From: Haplodiscus bocki
Lineage: Eukaryota
Direction of reading: 5' to 3'
Assembly: GCA_965655095.1 (NCBI GenBank)
Contig: OZ296649.1
Span: 36,518,001 to 36,582,000 of the forward strand
Length of the DNA stretch: 64,000 nucleotides
Both the position numbers and the translations under genes were made by a program. The notes under the pieces are model-generated. The model was not told the origin of the DNA. It ran no database searches and saw nothing but the letters and a program-made list of their open reading frames with translations. Below are positions 12,847-46,037 of this stretch, piece by piece (the first letter of the stretch is position 1; every line of letters starts with the position of its first letter).

Positions 12847-13191
12847 ATGTCTACAGCTTCCCAAACACAGAAAAACAAGGACAACTTATTCCTCACCCTG
12901 TCCCCGAGTTTAACCATATCGGTATCAACAACCAACCCGCTCAATATCAAGAACGTCCCTTCAAACGTTACAATTGAACTCGTAAAAGAAGAATATAGAC
13001 AAGTTGGATTACATAAACTATTGCTAAAGGCAGTCATCCATTTATCTTATGCTGAATTCCTTCAGCTTAAGTCGAGTACTGATTCCATTCACTCTTTTCT
13101 GAATTTCATAGGAAATCGTGTCAAATGCCCGCGTGAAGCAGCTGATGATAGACAACAACATCAAGCCTCTGAAACTTCCACCAACCCCTAA
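12847..13191 (+). CDS. Hypothetical Polinton protein
   Basis: 114-aa ATG ORF in the gene cluster; no motif recognised. Confidence 0.35.
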   Translation: MSTASQTQKNKDNLFLTLSPSLTISVSTTNPLNIKNVPSNVTIELVKEEYRQVGLHKLLLKAVIHLSYAEFLQLKSSTDSIHSFLNFIGNRVKCPREAADDRQQHQASETSTNP

Positions 13192-13375
13192 ACCTACAAT
13201 TCTATCTGGTAAAGAGGATCCCCGGCTGCCCAAGCAACGTTTCAACGTGCTAAAAGACAGAGACCACATTGTCGAAATTGTCGCTTTCCCGTACACACCT
13301 AGAGACCGGAAAAAGCAATATAGAGTAACTCTGAAACAGTGCGATGATTTCAATATTTGTATCGTTTACGTATAA
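13145..13375 (+). CDS. Hypothetical Polinton protein
   Basis: ORF MIDNNIKPLKLPP...YRVTLKQCDDFNICIVYV overlapping the previous ORF. Confidence 0.3.
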   Translation: MIDNNIKPLKLPPTPKPTILSGKEDPRLPKQRFNVLKDRDHIVEIVAFPYTPRDRKKQYRVTLKQCDDFNICIVYV

Positions 13376-13425
13376 AATATGTACAACTCTCAAATAATTT
13401 TTTTCAACCCAAAACAAACCTAGAA

Positions 13426-13702
13426 GTGGAAGACCAAGCAGTCGACTCCCGACGATATCGGAGTTGCACAATTCGTCTACGATGAAATTAACAGCGAACG
13501 TTCCTCGTGGAAGTTTTGTAACTCAACAACGTTAGCAAGATCTGAGTTTGTCTTTTTTTTCCAACCTGCAATTCTTGTGATACTCATCATCAGTAGTCTA
13601 GCAAAACTACTTTTCTACGAAGTATCTTTTGAAGAAATGCCAGTATGGGTGTCTCTTTTGTCAGCTGCGGGTGGTTATATACTTCCTAGCCCACATCTAT
13701 GA
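13426..13702 (+). pseudogene. Small two-TM membrane protein conserved upstream of the ATPase in Polintons
   Basis: RSEFVFFFQPAILVILIISSL...VWVSLLSAAGGYILPSPHL*. Its stop overlaps the ATPase start (ATGA). The 5' end appears frameshifted. Confidence 0.6.
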
Positions 13703-14361
13703 ACAAAATTATCTTCACTAACGATAGACTATTTATGTCTCTCGTTGGTCCTGGGGGCTCAGGTTAGACACGACTTATTTGTGCAATGTTAGCATGACCT
13801 ACAACATTTTATCCCAAGCTTCCAAAAAGCTAATCCAAAGAATATCAGTCATTATTCAAAGAAATAGCTGAAAAAATGAACATAGAGTTCGCACCATGTC
13901 TCGATTTCAAAATGATTAATAAACTTGAAAACTGTTTACTGGTTTTTGATAACTTTTGTGAAGAATTCTACCAGGAAAAAGAATTTGTTAAGATCGCCGT
14001 TGCCGGAAGACATAAAAAGATTCATTGCGTTTTCGTCGAACATAATTTGTTTCATCAGAGCAAGTGGTCGCGTACTATTCACCTCAATGCAACACACGTT
14101 GTCCTATTTAAGTCTCCACGTGATGTTCAGCAAAGTGATCACTTCGGTAGACAATTAAACAAGTCGGAGTTCATTCGAGATTGCTATGAAAAAGCTACTT
14201 CGTCTTCATATGATCATTTTTTGATTGATTTCGATCCAAAGACAAGTGAATCGTTGCGGTTCTGTTCCATTATTTCCGGGCCAGGTGCTACAATTTTCTA
14301 TCTACCTTCTTCGCTTGCAAAAGAGACCGCTTTGACAAATGAAGGAGAAAAACGCACCTAA
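13699..14361 (+). pseudogene. A32/FtsK-like genome packaging ATPase
   Basis: Walker A LVGPGGSG*T (K changed to stop), Walker B LLVFDN, and AGRHKKIHCVFVEHNLF...LNATHVVLFKSPRD. Confidence 0.92.
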
Positions 14362-14389
14362 ACTGAAGCACTGGCAAAACAAAAAGAAA

Positions 14390-14643
14390 AAAGAATTTTC
14401 AAAAGAATTTTATGTAACTCTAGCGCAGATGAAGTGAAGTTTCTCTTTGAATGTACCCTGAATATAATTAACGGAAATATCCCATTTAATGTCGATCGCT
14501 TACTCACCTATGTAAAAGAGCTGAAAGTATTATGCAATGCTAAGACAGGTGACAAGAAAAGACGAGGAATTCTTACCTCCAGCAAAGTAATCAAATTGAT
14601 GCAGGAGAGCAGTTGTCCTGTCTACTCATATATAACACCATGA
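14390..14643 (+). CDS. Small conserved Polinton protein (ECxxNxxxGNxP motif)
   Basis: FLFECTLNIINGNIP...ELKVLC...KKRRGIL, in the usual position just after the ATPase; start uncertain. Confidence 0.55.
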
Positions 14644-15200
14644 GCTCAAAAGAATTTTTTCTAATTCCTAAAGAAAACTATGTTGAAGAGCAACTTAGAT
14701 CATCGGAGGTTTTGTTCAATCCAACAATCAGTGAGAAAGGCAAACAACTGACGTTGCTACAGAGACAACAACCAACGGTAGGAAAAGAACACAACTCAAC
14801 TCTATCCCAAGTCGCGGAAAATCAGTTAGATATTGTGGAGAAAAGGGTGTTAAAATCATTACCGATGTTGAAGCCCGGACAGCTTGAAAAAACAAAGCCA
14901 ATCTTGAAAAAAAATTTCGAAGCCTCATGTAGGAGTTAACGAAGACGGATTTCTCACAGTAGATGATAGCGCAACCACGATTGAGGCTACTAATTTCCTT
15001 TATAACTTACAGCAAACAAAGAAAGGATTACACGACCCTGACTACAAACGTGTTTTAGAGAAGATCGATATTTCCCCGAGCTTGGTTGCTAATTCCGACG
15101 CAAAGAAAATACTCCAACCTACGCGAAGCAAAACAACAGTAAGACCTGAAATCAAAACGCCAGGGAAAGCCTGAAAGAAACAACGACTGGATGACAAGCA
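14640..15200 (+). pseudogene. Hypothetical Polinton protein preceding the integrase, frameshifted
   Basis: MSSKEFFLIPKENY... continues in another frame after the A-run at about 14910 (VNEDGFLTVD...NFLYNLQ). Confidence 0.45.
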
Positions 15201-15249
15201 GGTTGCAGAAGAGTCTCAAGCAGAAGAGATCTCAACGCGAGACTCTGAG

Positions 15250-16139
15250 AACTTAAGACTCGAGAAATTATTAAGAAAGGACAGGCTGAGTATGGAAGCG
15301 TTTCAAATCTGAAAAAAGCAATTTCCCTGTTTCGGGTGAAAGTTGAAACTTTCTTACAGAGTGAAAACTCACATACGAAGTACATAAAATACAGAAGACG
15401 TTTTCCCCATTTGAAAGTTATTGCTTACGATATCAATGAGATCTGATCTATTGATTTGGCTTATGTACACAAACTAGCTAAATACAACAATGGTGTTGAA
15501 TACCTTCTTGTCGCTGTTTATGTACTGTCACGAAAACTCACAGCTCAACCAATGCGAACTAAGGGTGCAGAGGAAACTGCTAAAACGTTTGGTCGCATGG
15601 TCACCAAAACAACCATTGAAAGTATCGTCTGATAAAGGAACCGAGTTCAAAGGGGCTTTCAAAAAGTTCTGTGAAAGGAAAGGCATTGACACTTACACCA
15701 CAAACAGTGAAGCGAAGTCGGCATTTCCAGAGCGGAATATTCGATCTCTCAAAAACACCATCTACAAATATTTGGAAAACAAATGGTCTTATGGCTACAT
15801 AAACGAATTGCAGTGTTTCGTTAACACAATCAATTCTCGAATCAATCGCGTAACAGGATTGGCACCGAACAAGGTCTCGGCGAAGCATGTAACAAACCTG
15901 GTTTCACAGATAGTCGAGTAAACTGGTCAGAAAACCAAGCTTGAAGCCTGGAGACAAAGTTCGAGTTTCGAAAGAAGATATACCGTTCAAAAAAAGGTAC
16001 AAACAACGCTTCACTGGCGAAGTCTTCCAGATTACCAAAGTTGCAACATTCAACCTACCCACTTATTTCCTGGTTGACTCTGAAGGAGAAGACATTCGAG
16101 GAAAGTTTTGACGAGCCGGAGTTGACAAAAACTCGGTAA
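15250..16139 (+). pseudogene. Retroviral-like DDE integrase (Polinton INT)
   Basis: EI*SIDLAYV, YLLVAVYVLSR, SDKGTEF, ERNIRSLK, INSRINRVTGLAP, KPGDKVRVSK...FTGEVFQI. Contains stops and frameshifts. Confidence 0.93.
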
Positions 16140-16140
16140 A

Positions 16141-17000
16141 ATGCATGAGTTTGACATAAATTTAAATCAACCGGTTCAATGGAAACTTTTCAACAAAACA
16201 CAATGGCATGCTTCTGCAGCATGCTCGCAGAACCTTTACAACTAGAAGGAGATTAGAGAGTGGCTTTGGCAGAAATAATTTCCCCAACAGGTATCAAGAA
16301 TGTTAACACCAAAGAGTACTTCGTATACACACCGAAAACTCCATTCAATAGTTCACCATCAGCAGGCAAGACAAACTCAGGAGGCGTTATGGTGGAACTG
16401 GAAGATTGCTCAAACAATGCAACTTTTCCTGATGGTGAACACAAAACTGTCAAGGATGTTGTCACGCCTTTACCTGTCGCGGTTGCTGAAAGCACGAGGC
16501 TCATTGTTACTTCAAGCACTGAAGAAGACAGTGTAGAGTTCAATTTTGCAGATGGTTATGGAATAGGTCTTCATGACAGAAGTCTATTCGATTTATTAGG
16601 GTTCAAGGGAGTGCTGCATCTCAACCGAGGTGGGTATTTTATTGGTAACAATAACAAAGTGAAGACGCAAACACAACCAATCAAGGGGGATTATCCGGCA
16701 GATCTTACAGCAGGAACCAACATTTTCTTTATTAACTGAGATATCATTGAACACCAGCAAATAGCTGGAGTTAAAGCACCTTTTCTCTGTGTCATTGATA
16801 CAGAAAGACGCCTTACAAACGGTAACCTACAAATCACCTCTGCAACGAAACATAAATCGTTTCTGGAATTGCTGTTTAAAAAGCTAGTTTTGGATACAAT
16901 CCGGGAAATATTTTTTGAATTAGTTGCGGTATCTGAAGATTACGTCCCATTTGTTGGAACCGGTCGTGTTGCGATAACATTAAAGTTTCGCAAGTTCTAA
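16141..17000 (+). pseudogene. Minor capsid protein (penton-like)
   Basis: LAEPLQLEGD*RVALAEIISP, FFIN*DIIEHQQIAGVKAPFL and C-terminal VPFVGTGRVAITLKFRKF are Polinton penton signatures. Confidence 0.8.
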
Positions 17001-17002
17001 AA

Positions 17003-17356
17003 ATGCAGTCGTATTTTTCCCGGCAAGCTGTCATGCCTCACTTTTCGGGTCACACAAGAGAGAGGAAGCGGTTTAGGATCCTTAGCCGCTGGAGTTGGAC
17101 GGGCCGCGTTACTTTTCGCAAAAAAAGTACTTTTACCAGCTGTCAAATCGATGGGGAAGGAGTTTTTAGTTCAAAGCTTAACAGAATTGATGGATGTTGC
17201 CACGAAAAAAGTCTCCAAATCAGCTGTGAAAAGCACAGTGGTAAAAAACAAATTGGAGTAAGTGCATCAATCAAGCAGAGTAAAGCTGTGAAAAGAAGCA
17301 GTCGACGAAAAAAGAAGTTAGAGAAGTCGGTCAAGTTTCTTTTCACGAGTAAAAAA
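17003..17356 (+). pseudogene. Basic core/pX-like virion protein, frameshifted
   Basis: MQSYFSRQ...FSG...RGSGLGSLAAGVGR...LLPAVKSMGKE. Glycine-rich protease-site-like motif and basic tail, located between penton and MCP. Confidence 0.6.
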
Positions 17357-18663
17357 ATGATACCTAACGTATTACCTGTTGAAGCATCACAAAGTTCATT
17401 GGATATTTTCGAGCGTCCCCCTCTCTTGATTACTTTCGATACATCTTTAGAGCAGAAAATTGGTCCAGTATATGCTCCAAATGGACCCACACTGGAGTTT
17501 GAAGTAGTTGGAGATCGAACCATTTTCATCGATTTGCAAAACATCTATCTCGAAGTAAAATGTAGGATTCTCAGACCTAATGCTAACAAACTGGAATACG
17601 ATGCAGGTAATGCTGAGGCAACTGATGCACCATTCTTTGTTAATAAGACTCTACATTCTCTTTTCTCTGGGTGCAGTATTACTGCGAATGGCATCAAAGT
17701 TTCTTCTAATGGCAATTACGCTCAAAAAACTTTCATTGAAACAGAATTCTCACGCAACAAAGAAGCAAAAGATACTTGGTTGAAATGTCAGGGATGTTTA
17801 TTTTAACAGCAACCTGATGACTTTACCAAAACAGCTTTCACTACAAGGACAGCTTGTAAACTCGGGAGTCCGCAGAGATATCTTTCATTGGAAAAATTGC
17901 GTCGGACTTTTTCTCTTGTGATAAACACCTGATAGGTCGAGTTACACTGAGAATTTCGTTCCCCAGAAACCGACCTGAATATGCACATAATTTACGGTGA
18001 TGAAGAAGATTCTAAAATCGAGATTTTACAAGCCATTTTATACGTTCGAAAAATGACAGTAAGTTTTACTCGGCTATTGAGACTACATTAACCAAAGCCC
18101 CTGCTCTATACCGTTATACTGAGATCATACCCAAAACGTTTCTCCTTTCCACAGGGGTGCAGAGTTGGAGTCACGAAGATGTATTCACCAGGGAGCCCAT
18201 TCGAAGGTTTGCAATAGCTATGGCAACAAACGAGGCCTTTCTGGGAGCCAAGCGCGTAAATCCTTTCCTCGTCGAAAAATTCAATCTCAAAAGCGTTACA
18301 GTTTATCGTAACGGTTATCCTGTTGCCGAACTCCACTCCAAACAGAGAATGATAAAAAAACTCGACCTTAATTCGCTCGAAGCTCTAGTTTTCGGACAAC
18401 ATGGTTATGTAATTTCTTACAACGACTATGCTAGTCACTGTTTTAGTGTTCGACCTAACCAGCACACAACAAGCACCGCATGATTATCTGTACCCAGAGC
18501 TGACAAATGGATCCATTTCTATTAGCTTAAGGTTTTCAGCACAACTAACAAACAGTGTAGAAGTGTTTTTGCTAGGTGACGGTCTTCTACTATTTACATC
18601 GACTCCTCTCGGAAGGTTTCCAAGAATGTTTTCTTGAACAAAAAGCTGGAAACCAAGCGTTGA
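17357..18663 (+). pseudogene. Double jelly-roll major capsid protein (hexon-like)
   Basis: SSLDIFERPP...LEFEVVG...FIDLQNIYLEVKCRI...LHSLFS...NYAQKTFIET, then PIRRFAIAM...NPF...FNLKSV, FDLT, and GSISISLRFS. Frameshifted. Confidence 0.9.
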
Positions 18664-19085
18664 TGGATAGTACCGCACTTTTACTACAGACTACGAAGTG
18701 TAGGTACCTGAGACAGAGACTCGTGGGGGTATTCTCTGCAGATACATTTCCTATACCACTCAACGACAACACTTTCATTATTGTTAGCTCCGAAAGTTCT
18801 GATGAGTAAGGGAAGCATTGGCTCTTGATATGCAACAAAGGCGGAATCTACCTATTCGGTGACCCTTTAGGCTTAGGCCTGGATGCCTACAAGAATCTTA
18901 ATAAGCGCTTAGCCTATGCAGATTTCAGTTGTCAAGAACTAATTCAAAAACCACTTCAACCGCCTACATTGAACTTATATGGACGTTATTATATATAAAT
19001 TGCTCATTGTGTTTTCAGTGGTTACTACCCTGTAATAACGCTAATCGAGGATGAACACTTATTAGGAATTTTAAAACATTTATAG
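18663..19085 (+). pseudogene. Adenain-like (C5) cysteine maturation protease
   Basis: GVFSADT...GKHWLL...FGDPLG...LQP..LNLYG. His and Asp are retained; the catalytic Cys reads Tyr; internal stops. Confidence 0.85.
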
Positions 19086-19781
19086 AAATTATAATTATCT
19101 TCGCTCACGTTAAAGTTACCCAGTTTTCAATCTTTTTTTTAAGACAGGATGAATCAAAATGAAAAGCTAGAAACTCATTGTTTATAGTACCAAAGCCAAA
19201 AATAGAAATATCAACAATTCTATAAAATGAGGCTGCATGATGACCATCAAGTATCAGGTTTAGTCTACTGAGAAAAACTGGAGACAACTCGCTGGTTTGC
19301 GCTGGTTTTTCGTTTCTTTTTCTCACTACGGGGACTCGTTTACGTATTCGTTTCGTGTTTCTGAAGAATGGGCTCCTGTTGTCCGGATTCTTGTTATGAT
19401 ACAGCTCGATTAAATTTTTCAATTGTATCACCGTTCGATTTTAAATAACTAGTCATAGTGTATCTGGAACGAGAAAGTTGAATATAAACATGGCACAGCG
19501 TACCCTCTTCCCCGTATTTGAAATTTGGAGCTTGATTCCAGAAGATGATATTGTTCATGCTCAATGTCACACTATTCGCTTTCTTCAGAGTGCAAACCCA
19601 AAGCATAACAGATGTCGTTTTCGAAATCTTTCCCCACACGCGGTTCTTCCGAACAAATATGATTACGAAAGTTTTTCCGAAACTTCATGAAAAATTCAGC
19701 GTTTTTTCGTACATAGCCTCAACCAGTTTCGGAAACTGAAAAAAAAACTAATTCTCATTTGGTAGTATTCAGGGAACGGAC

Positions 19782-20219
19782 TTACGGTTTCAAAAAAATG
19801 ATCTTGGCATTGAAGAATGAATTGATGAAAGAAGTTAAATGTTCACAGGCAGAAACGTTTAAATGAAATATTATATTGAGTTTGCCAGAAGAACATAATC
19901 TGGGCATTTTAGAGAATTGTTTGTTAGATGGCTTCTCTCGCTTGATAGTTGGCCTTAGATCCTCCTCTTCGGCTCCTGGTTGCATTCCAGTATTCTCTTT
20001 ATTGTTAGTCAACTGATGAAACTCAGAAGCAGTGAGTGTAAGTTGTTGATCCACATAATGCTCATTATCAACTCTTTTGAAAAATTTGAGAAACAAGTAG
20101 GTCCCCGTGTTGGAATAAGTTTTCGTTGTATTTCGTATGAGACGCCTCTCTGTTCTCGAAATATCGACGTAGCTATCCCCGAAATCTTTATCAGTAGTGG
20201 CAGAGAATGGACGTTTCAT
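19782..20219 (-). CDS. Possible PC4-like ssDNA-binding protein
   Basis: VDISRTERRLIRNTTKTY..TYLFLKFFK...QQLTLTASEFHQL resembles the PC4 strand/helix pattern. Confidence 0.4.
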   Translation of the reverse strand: MKRPFSATTDKDFGDSYVDISRTERRLIRNTTKTYSNTGTYLFLKFFKRVDNEHYVDQQLTLTASEFHQLTNNKENTGMQPGAEEEDLRPTIKREKPSNKQFSKMPRLCSSGKLNIIFHLNVSACEHLTSFINSFFNAKIIFLKP

Positions 20220-20903
20220 TTTTTTGAGCAGTTGGGCAAATTGGAGCAGGAAACTGTTTTCCAGGGAACGTGAGAAGTTGAATGACACAAACTGTTAAGA
20301 TAAAACCAGACAGAGAATGGTTGATGAATAGGGCTTGAACTTTAATGTTAGAAAGGAACCGTTATTTTGTTTACAAGCAAAAATAATAACTGGCAAACAA
20401 AATTGAAAAAGATTAGGTCAAAATACTTTGAAAATAGGAACGTGCAGGGACTTGTTTTACTACTTGTAAACAAATTTCATCTTTCGCCTTCACAAAAACC
20501 TTGATTATGAATAAATGACTAGATCAGGACCATTAATCGTTTTACGACAGGTAAACAAATCTACAACCACTTAAACCTGGAAGTTCTGAACAATACATGT
20601 GAACAAAATGTCTAATGTCTAGACATTACATTTAAACAAAAAACCCATTTCATTTTGTCACCATTCTAATTTTCCTTTCTCGATAACTAGTTAAATTTCA
20701 ATAAATCGTCAAATTAACAACTGGGTGCCTCTATAATTTTTTTTTCTTCTTACAGTGACTTCACACTTTCGATATTCGAAATCTAACTTCAAATGTATAA
20801 GATTGTTTACAGTTATTATTCATAGAATGTAACTAGAGGTTCAAACCTTCAGTAGTTTTTTTGTTCCTATCCTTATACTTCTCACGAAACTTGGTTTAAT
20901 AAA

Positions 20904-21434
20904 TTGGTGGCCATTGTCAGAGAAGAGAAATCGGTTGACAAATGGAGCGGCAAAAACTCAATATCCGTACCTAAAGCCATATTTTATTTGTTGAAGAGCA
21001 AGAGCGTTCCACCAAACATTGTCAGCAGTTTGGGAAATGTGGGCCTTGCAGAGCAAGATTTTCATGTGCGTACAAATATTGACCGTTTCGAATTACCTGT
21101 TAGTGTTCGCGAAGTCCTATTCCGTTTCGATTGTGAAGACATACCCTTATCCGAGAACCAGTTGGGTTATATGTCCGACTTAGAAACGTTAGAATGGTAT
21201 TGGGAGACAGTTAGCAACCCGCAATCTTCACGTCTCAAAGAAGAATCTCCATTTTCAACACACCCATATCAAGATAGTAATGAGGACAGTACAGAATTCA
21301 GTCATCTTGAAACTCCTGTGAAATCAAGGCCTTGCTACTCTAGTGAATGTCCTCCAGGGCCAAAAAAGAAGAACTTAGAAAACCGTCCCACATTTTCACC
21401 AGAAGTAAAGACAGTATATCTTTCAGAACTCTGA
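20904..21434 (+). CDS. Hypothetical Polinton protein
   Basis: 176-aa open frame upstream of pPolB; start uncertain; no motif recognised. Confidence 0.4.
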   Translation: MVAIVREEKSVDKWSGKNSISVPKAIFYLLKSKSVPPNIVSSLGNVGLAEQDFHVRTNIDRFELPVSVREVLFRFDCEDIPLSENQLGYMSDLETLEWYWETVSNPQSSRLKEESPFSTHPYQDSNEDSTEFSHLETPVKSRPCYSSECPPGPKKKNLENRPTFSPEVKTVYLSEL

Positions 21435-21986
21435 ATTATTTTTTATTTGATAGAAACCTTCATGATTGTCTTTTACATTTTCCGATATTCAACAAGATAA
21501 TATTTTCTATACATTTTTTAAATTCGTCAGCTAGATTAAATTCCATTTTGGGGATTAATATTTGAGGATAATAAAAACAATTTGTCTCTCCTCCGCTAAA
21601 ACAAAAGAAAATGCAACTACTCATGCATAATTTACAGTAAGCGGATGGCAGTAAAATCAGAATAAACAAACTTCAAAGAAATCGCTCGTGTGAAACTAGT
21701 CATATATGAGATGCAGAGTAGTAAAAGTGGTGATAAGAGAACAAAAGCCATCAGCAAAAGTTTGTTTTTGAACAAACAAAAGAACGAGAAGTAATTTTTT
21801 CCAGATCAAGACGAAAGACATTGTCATAAACACTCAGAATTTCTTCGAAAGTCCCGCATTTGATGATTTGACCTACTTTCAGCCTGCAGCCTTAGTCAAC
21901 AAAACAGAGATCGTAAACAAAATGGGAGAACATTATTGCTTTCTCAAATTTTCAAATTCAGTTCATTAAACTCAGCAGCGGAAAAT

Positions 21987-24900
21987 ATGATAAACTGTGT
22001 TATTTGCAGCAAAACATTTGCGAACAAGCAGAACGTATATTGGCATCTTCGCAATATTCATAACATGGAAACGTCGATGTCAGAGCAGAGAAACTGCACG
22101 GAATGTCTTTTCAAAAGTTACTCTTTGGCAGTAATGAAAAAACAATTCAAAAAACGTGGTATAACAAAACAGAAGCTCTGCATTTACTGCAACAGTCTCT
22201 TCTTTGATACAAAAATTTTCAATAAAAACTTATATGAAGTTCATTCGTTGCCTCCAGTTACACAAACCCAAAATTCGGAACGCAAACCACCTAGAGCATC
22301 TGCTTTTGGTGGTACAGTGCAAACGTACTTGTTAGAAGCAAACGGTGATCATGATTTCCTACAGTTCATGGTAGACCGAACGCAAATTATTGATGAGATT
22401 ATGGAAGAAGCCGTTCAAGCCGAACCGAAAAAAGTGCAGCTGTCAGGAAGAGTAAACGTGGAAAAACCTGCCTTAGAAGATGAAGATGCTACTGATCTCA
22501 CGATTCACGTGAACTCCAAAATGGAAACAGTCTATCTCGGTGAGAGACTCACAGAGGACGCTTTTTTTCACGATTTTGGATCAAATGTTATCGAGTCTGT
22601 TCAGTTTTACTGCCCACGGAAGTGGGTGGATGCTGAAAGATATCAATGGTCTTTACGTTAAACTAGTTTCGTACGTCCCCATTCGAGGTTCATCCTACCT
22701 TGGATTGCCAACTGACCTTCAAAGTATGAATTGCCTGTTGAACATAAGGAATCGGGAGGATAACAACTGCTTCCTCTATTATTGCGTGCTCGCGTGGCAT
22801 TTTACGTATGGTCAGAGTCTGTATGAAAATGTTGGTTGGCGAATGAGAACGAACCCAGAAACATATAGTCCATCTAATCCAATGACACATCAATCAGTTG
22901 GCGATTTCGAAATGCCGATGGCTTTCAACCAAATTCTAAGGTTTGAAAACCTGAACAAAGTTCAAGTTAATGTACTCCGTTACCAAAGGAAAGATCTCAT
23001 TCCACTGCAAATATCAAAACGACAGGAATTGCCATTCATCTTAGACCTTCTTCTTCTTAGCGATGGTCAAGCTTACCATTATGTTTTGATCGAAGACTTG
23101 AAAATTTTGATCAGCAACTTGAAGCAACAAGTTCCACGATCCAGTTGCAAAATATGCCGTAACTGCGTTCGTGTTTGCTATACAGCTGAAATTTACGAAA
23201 GACATATTGAGAGTTGCATGCAAAACGAAGCAGCCCCTGTTTAACTACCAGATGAAACGAAAAACGACTTAGTTTCAAAATTACCAGTCCAGGTGGTTCG
23301 CACTTGATGTTATGTATTTTGACTTTGAGTGGCTCATCAGACCTCTAGCAACCTGTTCCAACACTTCTGGTAGAAGTTCAAGCGAGATTATAGAGACATG
23401 AGTCTTGTGGATTTTGTTGGGTTGTTATCGAGCACAACAACCCGGAACCTGTCTTTTACAAATTGGAAATATCGTCTAATTGTATGCAAAGGTTCGTCGT
23501 AAACTTACAAAAACTTGCAAAAGATATTTATGAATTGAAGCAGTTATATCGAGATTGCACAGGATCACCTCAGTTGCCTTCCGATCAATGTTGGATATGT
23601 GAAAGAGATTTAGCTGAAAGCGAAAGAGTTTTAGATCACTGTCATGCCAGCGGAAAGTTCTTGGGTTTCGCACACAGTGGATGCAACCTTAAACGACGCA
23701 CAGTAAACTACATTCCGATATTCGCTCATAATGTTTCGAATTATGATTTACATTTTATTTGCAAAAATCTAAAACCTTTTCCCAGAAGACAGTAAAATTC
23801 AAGTCATTCCTATAACCGATGAAAAATACATTTGCTTTCGCTTGGTATTAGAGTTGCGCCTTACACCGACCGTCGAGGAGTTGAAAAACATGTCTATGAT
23901 TATTTACGTTTCGTCGACTCCTTTATATTTATGGCCTCGTCTCTGGACAAACTTGTGAGTTACTTACCTGCAGAGAACTTCAGTTTTTTGGATAACCACT
24001 TTCCTCAACATTGTTGGGAAGAGTTGCAACTACTCCATCAAAAGGGATTTTACCCCTACTCTTATTTCGATTCACATGAGAAATTTCAGGAAAAATCCTT
24101 GCCCAGTATAGAAAAATGGACGAACTCTCTCCAAGGTCAGGTGTCAATTAGTTCAGAGAACTTTCAACATGCTGTAAAAGTTATCCAAAGGTTTTGGTGC
24201 GAAAACCTCGGTAGTAACCACGACCTTTACCTAACAACGGACACTTTGCTACTTGCATGTGTGGTCGACCAGTTTCGAAAAGTTACGTACTCTACTTACG
24301 GATTAGATAGTGCTAACTATTACACGTGTTCTCATCTTTCTGGCGATGTTTTCCTAAAAGTTAGTAAAGCAAGACTGGAATTGCTTACGGACCGTAGTCA
24401 TTTGGAGATGGCTGAAAATTTGATCAGATGGGGTGTCTCCTCAGTGTTTTCAAAGCGTTTGGCAACGATGAAAAACAAGTACCTGGAAGGATTTGACGAG
24501 GCAAAAGCAAGAACATATGGTTTCCTCGTGGATACAAACCATCTTTATGGTGGAATCGTGCAAAAATTTCCACTGCCTTTGAGCGAGTTTGAGATCGTGG
24601 ATGTTGAACTTAGCACAATTCTCAATACCGCAAACGACTCGGAACTTGGCTTCGTATTAGAAGTCGACTTGGACTATCCTGATGCCCTCCACAATATGCA
24701 CAAAGACTTTCCACCGGCTCCAACGAAAAAGAAAATTGATCGCAATATGTTGTCCGAGTATCAGATGGGTCTATTGAATCAAGCATGCAATAGACGTGTT
24801 ACCCCGCCAAAGCTCGTACAGACGTTATTCGCGAAGAAAAATTACACCGTTCATTGCATTACCCTAAAGCTCTACGTGGATCTCGGTCTCAAAGTTACTA

Positions 24901-26471
24901 AAATACATCGGGTCCTTCAGTTCAAACAAGAATAGTGGTTGGAGCCCTACATCAGCGTGAACACCAGAATGCGAACTCAGTCAAAGAATAAGTTCGAAGA
25001 GTCATTTCTTAAGCTGATGAACAATTCTTGTTACGGTAAATCTCCTGAAAGCAAACGAAACAGGGTAAACGTAAAATTAGTTAAGACAAGAGAAGCCGTC
25101 CGTGAAAACTCTGATAAAGGTTTGTTGAAATTAATCAACATCTTCGATGAAAATCTGGTGGCAATTACAAGTCGCCGAGCACAAATTTACTGGGATACGC
25201 CAACTCTCGTGGGCACTTGCATACTGGATCTTGCCAAGTTCCATATGTATGAATTCGATTACAAGGTAAGCATAAAACGTCAAAATCACTACTTTCACCC
25301 CCAAGACTAAAACAAAGGAGCCGGTGTATTTTCCACCGATATAGTTTGAATCGATACTCATCAGGTGTCCAAGCGAAATGGTTTAGATGCAACGATCAAA
25401 CGTTCGGAAGCCGACGCTAGGGTTTTTGAAAGTCTCAATCGATTAAAAATATGTTTACTGGTAATGACGAAGACATTCGACTGCTCACTATTGTATTCGG
25501 ACACTGACTCGCTATTTTACAAGATCAGATGACAGTATTTCTATGAAAAAATAGCAAACGACCCCTTGCTACGAAACCATTTCGACTTTTCTAACTATCC
25601 GAACGACAGTGCTCTTCATTGTGACACAAACAAGATGATCACACTCAACTTCAAAGATGAGATGGCAGGGAAAGTCATCCGAGAATTCGTTGGTCTGAAA
25701 CCCAAAATGTACTCAATAGTTTATGAGAACCAGCGAAAAATGTCAGCAAAAGGCGTATCTCGGTTCGCTCAAACTTCACTGAAACACGATGTCTACAAAC
25801 GTGTTCTACTAAGTGGTCACCACATGAGGTCAAACAACATAAGAATTGGCTCTTCCAAACATCTCCTCCGAAACATTCGAAACAACAAATAATCCTTGAG
25901 TGCTTTTGACAATTGTTTCATACAAAACGATGGCATACATTGTCTACCTTTTGGCGACTTCGGAATAAGAGACTGGCAATTGCATTGCGAAATCCTGGAA
26001 GACGATGACTGGGGAGATGGAGAGCGGGAGGAAGCCCCAGAAACTAGTCCAACTTGGTCTACTTTTATCTGGGACTTCACAGTTTCCCCTAGTAGCAATG
26101 TTCTGTCGCTTTCAAACTATGATGCTGACCGTGAACGGAGCAACCTTGAAGTTGAAACGCAAATTTCAGATGAGTTATTCATTCCTCCTGACCCTGGAGC
26201 GCATCAACGAGATTACTACGAAAGTGAACTGGAAGAAGTCACTGACTTCGATGAACAAACACCGGCATATTCAACTCCTAGACGAAGAAACCCTTTCATT
26301 GAGGACGAAGCTGAAGAAGATTCCTTTCGAGATTTCGATTCCGACTATGATGATGTGACAATCAACTTTAGTCCCTTAAATGACCTTTCGCCGCTGAGGT
26401 TTCCCTCACTTTTGGATGATTCCCGACCCAAGAGAAGAAGAGTTGTTATATTTTCAAGTGGTACTGAGTAA
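21987..26471 (+). pseudogene. polB: Protein-primed family B DNA polymerase with N-terminal C2H2 fingers and an endonuclease VII domain
   Basis: CxxC fingers, GSGW, GSSYLGLP, exo I YFDFE, CWIC..DHCH..G.F.G.AH..CNL, exo II HNxSNYD, KGFYPYSY, motif A DTNHLYG, motif B KLMNNSCYGK, motif C YSDTDSL, EFVGLKPKMYS. Several stops and frameshifts. Confidence 0.96.
25266..25460 (+). other. Spliceosomal intron in pPolB (acceptor reads CTG)
   Basis: AAG|GTAAGC donor. Removing 195 bp joins MYEFDYK to VMTKTFDCSLLYSDTDSL. The intervening sequence has an in-frame stop. Confidence 0.75.
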
Positions 26472-26609
26472 TATTTGATCGCACAAAAGGATTTGCGCCA
26501 AACATTATGCAAACCTATTTCATCAAACGATGAAAAAAAGTTTTGAAGTGTTTCTTTTCACGTAGATAACACTCAACCCTGGAAGTGAGCATTGAAAAAA
26601 GTCTGCGCA

Positions 26610-26960
26610 AGAGGGTAGCGAAAGAGCACTTGCGAAAGAGCGCATGCAAAACGCCCCTGCGAAAGAGCGCACAGAAAAAGGCCCTGCGAAAGAGTGCACG
26701 GAAAAAAAGCCCCCGCGAAAGAGCGCATGCAAAACGCCCCTGCGAAAGAGCGCATGCAAAACGCCCTGCGAAAGAGCGCACAGAAAAGGCCCCTGCGAAA
26801 GAGTGCACGGAAAAAAAAGCCCCCGCGAAAGAGCGCATGGAAAAGCCCCTGTGAAAGGGCCCATGGAAAAAGCCCCTGCGAAAGAGCGGACGGAAAAAGC
26901 CCCTGCGAAAGAGCGCACGGAAAAAGCCCCTGCGAAAGAGCGCACGGAAAAAGCCCCAGT
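26610..26960. repeat. 27-bp tandem repeat GGAAAAAGCCCCTGCGAAAGAGCGCAC
   Basis: About a dozen imperfect units; reads KAPAKERTE in one + frame. Confidence 0.92.
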
Positions 26961-27621
26961 GGAAGAGCTTACCGAAACGCCCTGCAACATAGTGTTGAAA
27001 AAAGATACCGCAAAGCAATACCGGAAAAATCGTGCGGAGAAGGCCTCAGTGGAATAGAGTGTGGAAAAAATGAAGTCAAAATAATTCCAGCCTTACACAA
27101 CACAGATCGAGTCAGAGCCGGTATAAGAGCACCGAGGATGACAATACTAGGTGTTGTGCGGTTCCGGAAACACCATGAAGGTGACCTTTCTGACAGTTAT
27201 CTGTCTTGTTTTCTGGTTTTAAAAATGATTATCTGAAACTAGCACAGATTACAGACGAATTTTAACAAAATTAATCGATGAAAAAAACAGAATTGACAAC
27301 CGTCCTGGAGCATTATAGATGGTTGGGTATGGCTTTATTATCCAAAAAAAATTACCGTCTACAGGATATCTTAACTCCTAATAATTTCAATTGAATAACT
27401 AATCAGGAAATAATTTATAGGACTTGATTCATTTCCGACGTTGTGGTAGGCAGGCAATGCAAATAGTCATCTGTAAAAGGACCATTCAAAATTGCCAAAA
27501 GACTCGATTTTTAAGTTGAAGGTTGCCAGGGGAGTTGTTGAAAAAAAATGATTAGGTGAACATATAAATAAATTGAGCTTGACACTTACAAAAGATGTAC
27601 AGATCCGAAGTATCCATTAAA

Positions 27622-28059
27622 TCAGTCCGTAAAATGAACGGCATCAAGTTTTTGAAGCACATAGCATATAGCACAAGCTAAGTTCAGGTGATATCTATTG
27701 AAATCTCCCTTGGTGCTTAAAACACAATCTTCGATTCCTGCCGATCGTAGAAGGTTTTTTGCAATTGGATGGCCTTCCATTCCTACTCCCTCCGGTGCAG
27801 GGTTGATAATGACCTTCACATGTTCACACTTTGCCGTTACCCTGAATGGGACTGTTCTCAAATTGCCGTAGACCCATCTTCCGCGTACCACTCTGAATTT
27901 TTTCACAAAAGCGGTGGTTGTTGCCCCACTTATTGCCAGGTCTTTAGTCTTCTTGGTTTTTTGACACTTCCCGAACCAGCCATCTTTGTCACTTATCGCC
28001 ACGACAGCTTTGTATCTGGTTCTTATAGTCCCGTCAGGTCGCATATTTTGTAAAGGCAT
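27622..28059 (-). CDS. Divergent ribosomal protein uS5 (RPS2)-like protein, copy 1, intact, inside the Polinton
   Basis: MPLQ..RTRYKAVVAISDKDGWFG..AISGA..VVRGRW..RTVPFRVTAKCEHVKVIINPAPEGVG..KNLLRSAGIEDC..KG aligns colinearly with eukaryotic RPS2 MPVQ..[67 protein letters not shown]..RG. Upstream in-frame YKEETIKT matches LKDEVLKI. Confidence 0.9.
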   Translation of the reverse strand: MPLQNMRPDGTIRTRYKAVVAISDKDGWFGKCQKTKKTKDLAISGATTTAFVKKFRVVRGRWVYGNLRTVPFRVTAKCEHVKVIINPAPEGVGMEGHPIAKNLLRSAGIEDCVLSTKGDFNRYHLNLACAICYVLQKLDAVHFTD

Positions 28060-28338
28060 CGTTTTAATCGTTTCCTCCTTATAACCTGAAACATAAGGCT
28101 TTCACTTAGATGGAATTATTTGAAAGATGGCAGTTCGAACCCTGTTTCATAGTTGCAATCAACTTTTCTCGCCTTGTAGTAGAAGTTTGTTTACCTTTTG
28201 GTTGATAATTTCAAAGTTTGCAGAAACTTTTCAAGTATTTATTCTCAAACCACGTACTTAGCATTTGAAGTTCATATTATCACCAATGAAGAAAAAGAAA
28301 AATCTTTGAATGTTGACTTACATGGCATCCCGATTTGG

Positions 28339-28533
28339 CTAGCTGTATTACTTTTGGGTAGCAGTATGACTTTCGTTAGCCGTATGACTTCCCGTAGCTG
28401 TATGGATTCCCGTAGCTGTTTGACTTTTGGGTAGCTGTATCACTTTTGTCTAGCTGTATAAATTTTGTGTAGCTGTATAACTTTTGGGTAGATGTCTGAC
28501 TCTTGTATAGCTACCTGTGTGACTATTGTGTAG
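28339..28533. repeat. 19-20-bp tandem repeat (TAGCTGTATGACTTTTGGG-like)
   Basis: About nine degenerate units upstream of the uS5-like gene. Confidence 0.85.
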
Positions 28534-28770
28534 GAAATGTTTTTAGGTCTGAAGAAAGCTGGCGGTTTTGAAAATCAGGTTATGTTAGGTTAAGAATGCT
28601 TGCATTGGTGTTTACATTATGGCTTCAAGGAAGAAGCACCGTCCAAAATTGAATAGAGTAAAGTTAGTAGATGCGCGGATGGACGCTTCTTCAGCTAGGT
28701 CGCTAAGTAAATAAACTTGAAATACCAGTAGTCTAGCCTAGGCTAGATGTCAATTTTGTTTACAAGCCAG

Positions 28771-28875
28771 GATTCACCCGCGAAATACCAGTTTTGGTCC
28801 AGGGATTCACCCGCGAAAAGATTGACATAATCTTGGGATTGGGGTGCGAAAAACCATGTGAATCCCTATACTACT
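28771..28875 (-). repeat. Right terminal inverted repeat, followed by TSD CACATC
   Basis: Reverse complement of the left end; GATTCACCCGCGAAA occurs twice, 33 bp apart. Confidence 0.93.
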
Positions 28876-29801
28876 CACATCGTTTCAAGTGTTCAGAAGT
28901 TTCCCGGTTTGAAGTCGCAGAGCATCTAAGCTCTGAATCGGAAATTATCCGCGATTTCCTGAGCTTCTTTAAAAAGTGCCGTTCCTATTTCGAGACAGAT
29001 TTGATTTTAAGGTGAAAAATTTTCTTCGAGGTTAAATAATTACTAACGTCACTTCGCGTTTTTTTTCTCTTTACTAAACTAACAAATATTGTGCTTGTAA
29101 AAATGGGTTGTGTCTTCTACCCAGATGTAGTAACTTACCCCTAAGTTTTAGGAATTTTTGGAAAATTATTTGGTGAATAGAACATTATTTAATTCTTTAG
29201 TGAATAAAGTGAACTACTTGTTTGTCATTTAAACGAAATTTTTGGGATCGTTTTATGATTTGATCATGTTCTGACTACATTGGTATACTCAAATAGTGTT
29301 GCATTAAATTTGAATTAAAAGTCAGCTTTGACAGGAAATAATTCGAAAACTATTTGCATTAGACGAAAGTCATCGAAACTAAAGATTCCTAAATTTTGCA
29401 AAAAACTGTTTTAGTTATAGTTTCAACTTTTGTTCTGAAGTCTATTAACTCTTCTAAAAAAAAACAGAAATTTTCTTTTTAAGTCGTTCTTTTGAGGTGC
29501 TTTTTTTGATGACAACCGACTGGATTAAATCCATCAGACGCGGACTCAAACTACTCGCTGCCTATAACTTCTGAAAAGGAGCCCAGATAATGTTTTTCAA
29601 CCTTAGTCGCGTATTATCTGAACCTGTGTCTCGAAAATATTGCAGCTTTTCCTGAACGTATTGTTCGTCGAATTTGTGTTTTTTCATGACTAATTTCGGA
29701 GTTTGTCAGATCATGGCCGATTCGCTTCATGTCTCGCTGGATGACTTCCGAAGTATCCGAAGCCTTCCGAAGTATCCGAAGCCTTCCGAAGTATCCGAAG
29801 C

Positions 29802-34256: not shown

Positions 34257-36943
34257 CGTTTTAATCGTTTCCTCCTTATAACCTGAAACATAAGGCTTTC
34301 ACTTAGATGGAATTATTTGAAAGATGGCAGTTCGAACCCTGTTTCATAGTTGCAATCAACTTTTCTCGCCTTGTAGTAGAAGTTTGTTTACCTTTTGGTT
34401 GATAATTTCAAAGTTTGCAGAAACTTTTCAAGTATTTATTCTCAAACCACGTACTTAGCATTTGAACTTCATATTATCACCAATGAAGAAAAAGAAAAAT
34501 CTTTGAATGTTGACTTACATGGCATCCCGATTTGGCTAGCTGTATTACTTTTGGGTAGCAGTATGACTTTCGTTAGCCGTATAACTTCCCGTAGCTGTAT
34601 GGGTTCCCGTAGCTGTATGAAATTTGGGTAGCTGTATCCCTTTTGTCTAGCTGTATAAATTTTGTATAGCTGTATAACTTTTGGGTAGATGTCTGACTCT
34701 TGTATAGCTACTTGTGTAACTATTGTGTAGGTAATGTTTTTAGGGCTGAAGAAAGCTGGCGGTTTTGAAAATCAGGTTATGTTAGGTTAAGAATGCTTGC
34801 ATTGGTTACATTGGTTAGGTTACATATTGACTTTAAGGAAGAAGCACCGTCCAAAATTGAATAGAGTAAAGTTAGTAGATGCGCGGATGGACGCTTCTTC
34901 TTCAACTAGGTCGCTAAGTAAATAAACTTGAAATACCAGTAGTCTAGCCTAGGCTAGATGTCAATTTTGTTTACAAGCCGGGATTCACCCGCGAAATACC
35001 AGTTTTGGTCCAGGGATTCACCCGCGAAAAGATTGACATAATCTTAGGATTGGGGTGCGAAAAACCATGTGAATCCCTATACTACTCACATCGTTTCAAG
35101 TGTTCAGAAGTTTCCCGGTTTGAAGTCGCAGAGCATCTAAGCTCTGAATCGGAAATTATCCGCGATTTCCTGAGCTTCTGTAGAAAGTGCCGTTCCTATT
35201 TCGAGACAGATTTGATTTTCAGGTGAAAAATTTTCTTCGAGGTTAAATAATTACTAACGTCACTTCGCGTTTTTTTTCTCTTTACTAAACTAAGAAATAA
35301 TGTGCTTGTAAAAATGGGTTGTGTCTTCTACCCAGATGTAGTAACTTACTCCTAAGTTTTAGGAATTTTTGGAAAATTTTTTGGTGAATAGAACATTATT
35401 TAATTCTTTAGTGAATAAAGTGAACTACTTGTTTGTCATTTGAACGAAATTTTTGGGATCGTTTTATGATTTTTTCCTGTTCTGACTACATTGGTATACT
35501 CAAATAATGCTGCATTAAATTTGAATTAAAAGTCAGCTTTGACAAGAAATAATTCGAAAACTATTTGCATTAGACGAAAGTCATCGAAACTAAAGATTCC
35601 TAAATTTTGCAAACAACTGTTTTAGTTATAGTTTCAACTTTTGTTCTGAAGTCTATTAACTCTTCTAAAAAAACAGAAAAAAAATTTTCTATTTAAGTCG
35701 TTCTTTTGAGGTGCTTTTTTTGATGACAACCGACTGGATTAAATCCATCAGACGCGGACTCAAACTACTCGCTGCCTATAACTTCTGAAAAGGAGCCCAG
35801 ATAATGTTTTTCAACCTTAGTCGCGTATTATCTGAACCTGTGTCTCGAAAATATTGCAGCTTTTCCTGAACGTACTGTTCGTCGAATTTGTGTTTTTTCA
35901 TGACTAATTTCGGAGTTTGTCAGATCATGGCCGATTCGCTTTATGTCTCGCTGGATGACTTCCGAAGTATCCGAAACGGATTTTTTCAAACTTTCGACGA
36001 ATTTTTAGGTTTCAATTAATTTAGGTTTTTTGTCGGACTAGTCTGCAATGAGTCTTCATCGCATTCTGTCTGTTGTTTAATACACGAGCGAGAAAGTGGA
36101 GCGAAGTAGTTCACGGACGGCTTTCGTTTTTTCCCGTTGTGCGTCTCCACTTCGAATTTCTGTTAAATTCTTGGTCACACAGAATTTGCTAATGCGCTTT
36201 CTTTCTTAGAAATCATCCTTCAATCCGCTCCACGACCTGTCGTAAAGTTCTTCAACTGCACGTGGCCTAATAATCATCTTTTTTTGGTTCAAATAAACTA
36301 CAGTTCTTTTGAAATGGCTTTTGATTACCAAATTAGTAATCGGAGACGGATTTTTTTGGTCGTGTTTTGCCAAAGGTTGTTTACTTGAAAACTGATGAAG
36401 TCCAAATAATTCCAGCTTTACACAACACAGATCGAGTGAGAGCCGGTATAAGAGCCCCGAGGATGACAATACTAGGTGTTGTGCGGTTCCGGAAACACCA
36501 TGAAGGTGACCTTTGTGACAGTTATCTGTCTTGTTTTTTGGTTTTGAAATGATGATATGAAACTAGCACAGATTACAGACGAATATTAACAAGATTAATC
36601 GATGAAAAAACAGGAATGAAAACCGTCCTGGAGCGTTATAGATGGTTGGGTATGGCTTTATTATCCAAAAAAATTACCGTCTACAGGATATCTTAACTCC
36701 TAATAATTTCAATTGAATAACTAATCAGGAAATAATTTATAGGACTTGATTCATTTCCGACGTTGTGGTAGGCAGGCAATGCAATTAGTCATCTGTAAAA
36801 GGACCATTCAAAGTTGCCAAAAGACTCGATTTTTAAGTTGAAGGTTGCCAGGGGAGTTGTTGAAAAAAAATGATTAGGTGAACATATAAATAAATTGAGC
36901 TTGACACTTACAAAAGATGTACAGATCCGAAGTAGCCATTAAA

Positions 36944-45599: not shown

Positions 45600-46037
45600 T
45601 CAGTCCGTAAATTGAACGGCATCAAGTTTTTGAAGCACATAGCATATAGCGCAAGCTAAGTTCAGGTGATATCTATTGAAATCTCCCTTGGTGCTTAAAA
45701 CACAATCTTCGATTCCTGCCGATCGTAGAAGGTTTTTTGCAATTGGATGGCCTTCCATTCCTACTCCCTCCGGTGCAGGGTTGATAATGACCTTCACATG
45801 TTCACACTTTGCCGTTACCCTGAATGGGACTGTTCTCAAATTGCCGTACACCCAGCTTCCGCGTACCACTCTGAATTTTTTCACAAAAGCGGTGGTTGTT
45901 GCCCCACTTATTGCCAGCTCTTTAGTCTTCTTGGTTTTTTGACCCTTCCCGAACCAGCCATCTTTGTCACCTATCGCCACGACAGCTTTGTGTCTGGTTC
46001 TTATAGTCCCGTCAGGTCGCATATTTTGTAAAGGCAT
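45600..46037 (-). CDS. uS5-like copy 6, intact ORF
   Basis: 145 codons from MPLQ. It reads VAIGDKDG, closer to RPS2 AIGD than copy 1. Confidence 0.85.
   Translation of the reverse strand: MPLQNMRPDGTIRTRHKAVVAIGDKDGWFGKGQKTKKTKELAISGATTTAFVKKFRVVRGSWVYGNLRTVPFRVTAKCEHVKVIINPAPEGVGMEGHPIAKNLLRSAGIEDCVLSTKGDFNRYHLNLACAICYVLQKLDAVQFTD

Follow-up and report, generated by a model that had tools for sequence, protein, structure and literature searches.

A truncated, long-selected uS5 derivative in at least eleven alleles beside the right terminal inverted repeat of a Haplodiscus bocki Polinton family: a possible shape mimic

Introduction

Animal adintoviruses and Polintons are recognised by terminal inverted repeats (TIRs), a 6-bp target-site duplication (TSD), a protein-primed DNA polymerase (pPolB), an integrase and an ATPase (PMC8502044). 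The element described here resembles them in all of these features, whereas the accessory genes reported there encode venom-like membrane proteins and the one found here encodes a relative of ribosomal protein uS5. Nematode Mavericks are known to carry WASP proteases and KRMA kinases as cargo (bioRxiv 10.1101/2022.07.12.499685). They share with our element a poorly conserved region on the TIR side and intron-bearing genes of host origin, and inter-element recombination was inferred for them (bioRxiv 10.1101/2022.07.12.499685). Their slot, as described there, lies at the left end, spans 2-5 kb and holds proteases or kinases, while that of the H. bocki Polinton lies at the right end and spans about 1.4 kb. 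Unlike the nematode cargo, all filled slots in H. bocki are occupied by alleles of a single gene derived from a ribosomal protein.

Virus-encoded ribosomal proteins have been described for phages and a few giant viruses. Phages encode bS21, bL12, bL9 and HPF (PMC6375957), giant viruses eL40 and S27a (PMC11499249, PMC13595923), and FBR-MuSV carries S30. In eukaryotic viruses such genes are reported to be rare, and the examples found are small peripheral proteins in giant viruses. What these systems have in common with ours is that a virus carries a gene for a ribosomal protein and that purifying selection acts on it. However, the known viral ribosomal proteins are described as mostly small, late-binding or exchangeable, while Polinton uS5 derives from a two-domain core protein of the 40S subunit. 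The eL40 of FloV-SA2 is 84.6% identical to that of its host (PMC11499249, PMC13595923), compared with 25-45% for Polinton uS5, which moreover is carried by an integrating animal element of 18 kb and occurs in many alleles. The term uS5 does not occur in the accessible text of PMC6375957 and PMC11499249, nor does the string "ribosom" in the main text of PMC8502044, in the accessible text of the other Polinton papers that were term-searched, or in that of bioRxiv 10.1101/2022.07.12.499685. Our literature searches returned no Polinton with a ribosomal protein; supplements and a 2024 polinton review lay beyond their scope and may bear on novelty.

Poxvirus K3 is a truncated copy of eIF2-alpha. As a viral version of a component of the host's translation machinery that has diverged and acts as a pseudosubstrate mimic, it provides a model for a decoy. 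For K3 the target, PKR, is known, whereas Polinton uS5 is a candidate decoy, and no positive selection was seen in it.

The Polinton and its tandem array

The window, i.e., the whole stretch of 64,000 nucleotides of the H. bocki genome analysed here, contains a full-length Polinton at 11062-28875. Its TIRs begin with AGT, it is flanked by a 6-bp TSD (11056-11061, repeated at 28876-28881), and it carries genes for a protein-primed polB and a retroviral-type integrase, both broken in this copy; these are among the features that define a Polinton/Maverick. TSDs were likewise present in five out of five sister copies checked and in a short derivative described below. From left to right, the forward strand holds the left TIR (11062-11133, starting AGTAGT), a packaging ATPase gene broken by four stops (13699-14406), the integrase gene (15191-16129), a broken gene for a putative major capsid protein (17357-18660) and the polB gene (21987-26468). 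The latter likely consists of two exons separated by a short GT-AG intron near 25415-25463; in sister copies it appears as two long ORFs with an acceptor-like site. Sister copies match DNA_pol_B_2 (E = 3e-15) and rve (E = 3e-9), and their ATPase matches Pox_A32 weakly, with an E-value of 2.7e-4 that falls short of the cut-off. The ORFs that we label as putative capsid and protease genes from their position have no Pfam match. The core of the window element has an identity of about 92% to the sisters that have decayed least. This copy is dead, since polB, capsid, integrase and ATPase are all interrupted by frameshifts or stops.

The region to the right of polB has a modular layout. A minisatellite of variable length (26520-27060), typical of the family, is followed by a conserved left arm (27065-27212), to which 11 out of 13 loci with other alleles can be aligned. 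Next come the variable cassette (27213-28579, allele A, about 1.4 kb), which blastn cannot align to alleles B, C, D, H, I and J, and a conserved right arm (28580-28875) that includes the right TIR (28804-28875). The uS5 gene lies between the polB stop (26468) and this TIR, on the strand opposite to polB. Across the window copy and loci L162, L163, L047 and L069, the length of the minisatellite varies between roughly 0.2 kb and over 8 kb, and its frames yield long spurious ORFs.

After insertion, the right part of the element gave rise to a tandem array (29800-61812) of nine further right ends, each made of a uS5 cassette, a TIR and host flank. The TIRs end at 35086, 38205, 41030, 43801, 46570, 50293, 54010, 57388 and 60485. 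The window thus has 10 TIR ends and 10 uS5 copies, two of them open across all 145 codons and eight broken. Including this one, four separate arrays of the uS5-bearing right part were observed, the others being located at G000:C7:38.83-38.90 Mb, C6:2.24-2.31 Mb and C1:78.23-78.30 Mb. The uS5-bearing end seems prone to satellite-like amplification.

Several further observations concern the family as a whole. A derivative of 2.4 kb at L053:6719-9123 still has a TIR at either end and is flanked by a 6-bp TSD; it consists of the left 656 nt and an allele C cassette and is 99.7% identical to full copies. Additional family-conserved ORFs of 203-224 aa, all without Pfam match, occur at L050:1943-2551, L050:8769-9440 and L049:518-1132. 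A poxvirus-type wiring of gene expression was considered and rejected: no TAAATG is found among the 18 ORF starts listed for L043, L044, L049 and L050, and introns are predicted.

Homology, gene structure and fold

The 145-aa ORF at 27622-28059 on the reverse strand is a homologue of uS5/RPS2, 38% identical to the host RPS2 over 146 columns. In a Pfam profile search it matches Ribosomal_S5_C with E = 1.6e-10 and Ribosomal_S5 with E = 0.0022; the second value misses the cut-off in the window ORF and passes it in the array copy at 45600, so that both domains are found in addition to the uS5 fold. The best 60 of its 92 matches in the PDB are all cytosolic uS5 (top E = 1.6e-19). With the eukaryotic/archaeal uS5 profile it reaches 89.6 bits, compared with 26.8 for the bacterial one; neither score passes the cut-off. 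These matches and scores rule out a mitochondrial or bacterial origin. The equivalog cut-off of TIGR01020 (181.65 bits) is not reached by alleles A (89.6), B (67.3) and C (70.5), compared with 265.9 bits for the host RPS2, a protein of 258 aa encoded elsewhere in the genome (locus L031). Among the relatives of this host protein is a cluster at 90% identity to which a Convolutriloba macropyga sequence belongs, which makes an acoel host likely.

A structure model built from a 94-row alignment that includes cellular uS5 reaches a pLDDT of 95 and superposes on residues 102-253 of human uS5 with a Z-score of 20.8 and an rmsd of 2.3 A over 150 residues; the model obtained from 10 Polinton rows alone is poor (pLDDT 57). 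Polinton uS5 thus resembles eukaryotic uS5/RPS2 in both globular domains, in fold and in its Gly/Pro skeleton. In contrast to the latter, it lacks both terminal extensions and the PDCD2 motif, and most of the universal polar residues are changed. The earlier note, made from the letters of the sequence, had described the ORF as colinear with both uS5 domains and placed it between pPolB and the right TIR, and Pfam, PDB matches, superposition and the mapped element ends agree with it on both counts. It had also reported the RG-rich N-terminal tail and the C-terminal tail as missing, which holds, but the loss goes further and takes in the N-terminal segment before the S5 domain (host residues 1-76).

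The extent given there for the gene, 27622 to 28059, is sound for the ORF and too short for the gene. Homology reaches back beyond the ATG by 26 nt, as far as a splice acceptor. A first exon of ATG plus 4 nt is predicted at 28328-28322 (reverse strand), with a GTAAGT donor, 236 nt upstream of that acceptor. The 145-aa ORF would accordingly sit in exon 2 (27622-28085), behind a predicted phase-1 GT-AG intron (28086-28321), and the spliced product is likely to be 156 aa long. Alleles A, D and E have this phase-1 intron at a common position and phase. In alleles F and G the ATG and donor are present and the acceptors have decayed, and alleles B, C, H and I begin directly with ATG. Compared with the host RPS2, the host coding intron is absent and the Polinton gene has a predicted intron of its own after the ATG.

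Distribution among the Polintons of the genome

A protein search of the genome with the uS5-like query gave 268 candidates, 150 of which were scored; all of the latter have E <= 0.001, and many lie in arrays. We fetched 10 kb around 80 matches from this and one further search, as a rule a single match for each locus and one or two for each array. Genes for polB and/or capsid lie beside 63 of the 80 loci, and polB, where present, is convergent with uS5 as in the window, bar a few rearranged copies. The remaining 17 comprise three loci with the family TIR, one with a TIR-like end, three array members, one host paralogue and nine unplaced loci.

The reverse test started from 40 of 150 polB matches, which were picked as missed by the uS5 search and are therefore biased toward absence of the gene. 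Of them, 24 belong to the uS5-bearing family. The right arm falls within the stretch in 15 of these, 14 of which carry uS5; the other nine stretches end early or run into the minisatellite and are uninformative in this respect. The fifteenth copy (L181) was the sole candidate for other cargo in the slot and turned out to be an A-like cassette with the gene deleted. From these counts, the uS5-like gene is a fixed part of this Polinton family. In a sister family, represented by 14 stretches, 11 of them with a right TIR, there is no uS5 at that slot, and two distant polB stretches likewise lack it; the gene is therefore not essential to Polintons. In still more distant elements, whose polB is 26-50% identical, uS5 is again found at this position, and some of these genes have retained the complete N-terminal segment.

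The allelic cassette

In the least-decayed copies of alleles A, B and C, the backbone of about 16 kb is 93-97% identical and the terminal arm 87-91%, and the slot itself cannot be aligned. The slot corresponds to the cargo site of Mavericks, a region of low conservation by a TIR that holds a host-derived gene with an intron predicted from sequence. Clustering of 58 loci (57 plus the window) at the DNA level gave 11 multi-member clusters and four singletons, two of which resemble fragments of known alleles. At least 11 alleles of the uS5-like gene thus occupy the slot of about 1.4 kb. This apparently exchangeable set of alleles is the main feature of the family and lay outside what the earlier note could see.

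Alleles A, B, C and J are each found on backbones from about 80% to 94-100% identity, and so have coexisted over the whole age range of the family. In a polB tree (FastTree, five short rows omitted), 56 copies with nine allele labels form one poorly resolved clade with a support of 100. The simplest reading is block exchange of cassettes, presumably by recombination in the conserved arms; it would involve whole cassettes because the alleles are too diverged to recombine inside.

Selection

We took 40 natural segments with a single frame and summed branch lengths for the three codon positions separately. For positions 1, 2 and 3 the sums are 3.69, 2.65 and 10.29 over the internal branches, and 0.94, 0.81 and 1.07 over the terminal branches within alleles A, B, C and H. 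Among 12 allele representatives omega (dN/dS) is approximately 0.12, an imprecise value since synonymous sites are saturated (pS 0.60-0.84 and pN 0.29-0.45 in 12 between-allele pairs). Within alleles it amounts to 0.43 (A), 0.82 (B), 0.70 (C) and 0.91 (H). Low omega between alleles and high omega within them indicate an old divergence of the alleles, with purifying selection acting, and a decay of copies once they are inserted. No positive selection was seen among the alleles, where saturation would mask such a signal.

A captured and repurposed gene, as opposed to a pseudogene, had been proposed in the earlier note, together with three findings that would count against it: sister copies without the gene, near identity to the host RPS2, and a dN/dS of about 1. 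On each point the data went the other way, as sister copies carry the gene, identity to the host RPS2 is 38% and omega is about 0.12; divergence, between-allele omega and the fixed slot together rule out a processed pseudogene of the host RPS2. One argument of the note has to be given up. The open frame of the window copy is weak evidence because this copy decays neutrally and eight of the ten copies in the window are broken, and in such a degenerate element we reject it as a sign of function. Polinton uS5 is real, ancient, selected and multi-allelic, and we hold its anatomy and the selection on it to be very probable.

Proposed function

uS5 contacts uS2, uS3, uS4, uS8, eS21 and 18S rRNA and orients the mRNA (PMC10216425). 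Off the ribosome its partners include PRMT3, PDCD2, PDCD2L and ZNF277; an N-terminal motif binds the chaperone PDCD2, and the RG tail is methylated by PRMT3 (PMC10216425). PDCD2/Zfrp8 in turn affects transposon RNAs in flies (PMC4726551). The absence of the PDCD2-binding motif and of the RG tail from Polinton uS5 removes two known decoy targets. A complex prediction for allele A and two segments of the host's ZNF277, both encoded by exons, scored 0.00 and is uninformative either way.

At 16 polar positions universal in eukaryotes and archaea, the alleles, in a tally that includes decayed copies, keep 42%, and six fast-evolving eukaryotic uS5 proteins, assumed to be ribosomal, keep 70%; at 16 universal Gly/Pro positions the values are 78% and 89%. 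The alleles have for the most part lost Q88, E121, K134, H153, S165, T205 and T207, which the fast cellular proteins mostly keep. The tip of the hairpin (host residues 87-95) is near-invariant in the eukaryote sample and freely variable across alleles. R96 is retained in 77% of the alleles and R98 in 93%; by structural superposition these two arginines are the counterparts of R95 and R97 of yeast uS5, which are needed for importin binding (PMC10377357). The net charge of the alleles ranges from +4 to +18.

Many universal polar residues are lost while the fold is kept, and a decoy or mimic is therefore likelier than a working part of the ribosome. The earlier note had suggested altered host ribosomes, a decoy for uS5 partners or dsRNA binding; the residue losses speak against ordinary incorporation into ribosomes. 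The retained two-domain shape with a rewritten, allele-variable surface seems to fit a decoy best, a tentative judgement that we hold with slightly less than half of our confidence. The gene would be transcribed by Pol II and spliced in the nucleus, and its product may re-enter the nucleus by way of the arginine pair R96/R98. The protein might compete with host uS5, either for the partners of the latter or for the place that it takes in immature small subunits. Such a protein would have a role in conflict with the host, and a turnover of host targets or rivalry among the elements may maintain the diversity of alleles; alternatively, old alleles could have been collected from extinct lineages without selection for diversity. 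The decoy mechanism as such we regard as plausible but just short of evenly balanced, and we see about an even chance that the composite picture, a truncated, long-selected uS5 derivative in at least 11 alleles beside the right TIR that acts as a shape mimic, is right.

The same residues bear on ribosome remodelling, in which the Polinton protein would replace host uS5 in the 40S subunit and alter mRNA entry or decoding to the benefit of the element. Both domains and their packing are kept in the structure model, and the net charge is positive. The short form corresponds to the universal core, bacterial S5 being devoid of both extensions (PMC10216425), and longer forms in distant Polintons retain the N-terminal segment. 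Phage bS21 and bL12 are, moreover, reported to enter ribosomes. However, the seven polar residues named above are mostly lost, the hairpin tip differs among alleles, viral ribosomal proteins are described as enriched for loosely bound, exchangeable ones, and uS5 is a stable component of the ribosome (PMC10216425). We consider remodelling unlikely. The wider proposition that a Polinton lineage reprograms host ribosomes, by way of exchangeable uS5 variants that are incorporated into the 40S subunit or obstruct it at the mRNA channel and that conflict with the host or between elements keeps in balance, appears doubtful as well.

Loss of ribosome-specific polar residues, together with a basic surface and conserved arginines, would also suit a stand-alone nucleic-acid binder. 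uS5 has a dsRBD-like domain (PMC10216425), which might shield element RNA from silencing, or the basic protein might pack particle DNA. But this leaves unexplained both the equal conservation of the C-terminal domain and the persistence of many alleles on one backbone, and we judge it rather improbable.

The multi-allelic slot itself raises the question of a selfish or exclusion cargo, with alleles as allele-specific poisons, antidotes or superinfection-exclusion types. One of the variable, intron-bearing cargo genes beside nematode Maverick TIRs is described as having become a toxin (bioRxiv 10.1101/2022.07.12.499685), and the 2.4-kb derivative bounded by TIRs keeps mainly the uS5 cassette. 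No second gene was noticed in the slot, on inspection short of a systematic search, and this explanation is very unlikely in our view. A functionless host RPS2 retrocopy that hitch-hikes with the element would agree with the many broken genomic copies and the nearly neutral old copies of single alleles (omega 0.70-0.91 in B, C and H), but is largely refuted and extremely improbable given the between-allele omega with its saturated synonymous sites, the kept frame and fold, the conserved intron position and the fixed slot.

Whatever its target, the gene for a core 40S protein has persisted in an integrating, virus-like element of 18 kb for so long that its synonymous sites are saturated, and it has given rise there to an apparently swappable series of alleles. 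This suggests that in animal germ lines a conflict that has escaped notice is played out over uS5, the assembly of ribosomes or the surveillance of RNA. The finding is also relevant to the question of whether Polintons of animals go through an active phase in which they manipulate the host, and the allele series offers a natural set of uS5-fold variants for target finding.

Origin and relatives

In a 36-row tree, 11 Polinton rows and eight ENA proteins fall on one side of a branch with a support of 99/95. Three of these ENA proteins have no match above 46% in the H. bocki genome and several are multi-copy on long contigs; they are thus likely to represent related genes in other species. A union of the Polinton clade with acoel RPS2 is rejected (AU p = 0.0026), a rejection that long branches could cause, and a union with a diverged host paralogue is compatible with the data (p = 0.29) in a test that long branches affect as well. 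Residues shared with this paralogue are no more numerous than in controls (5.0 versus 5.5, 4.9 and 3.7). We infer a single ancient capture of uS5. Searches returned no relatives with DNA context in IMG/VR for the capsid or uS5 protein, in JGI metagenomes for polB, or among GenBank phages, and BFVD gave no match at E <= 0.001.

Three uS5 relatives came to our attention in passing. A second, diverged host uS5 gene, apparently open and with at least four exons, is located at L127:1000-2600 (G000:C2 near 105.178 Mb). The stretch has no Polinton genes within it, and since the gene is 45-72% identical by exon to JGI proteins P0063, P0081 and P0304, it is likely a conserved lineage-specific paralogue. 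P0052 and P0082, with records in JGI, Logan and merc, represent a further family of diverged uS5 paralogues, marked by a long acidic tail. Finally, the 219-aa ENA protein P0119, in which part of the S5 N-domain is duplicated, is related to the long Polinton forms.
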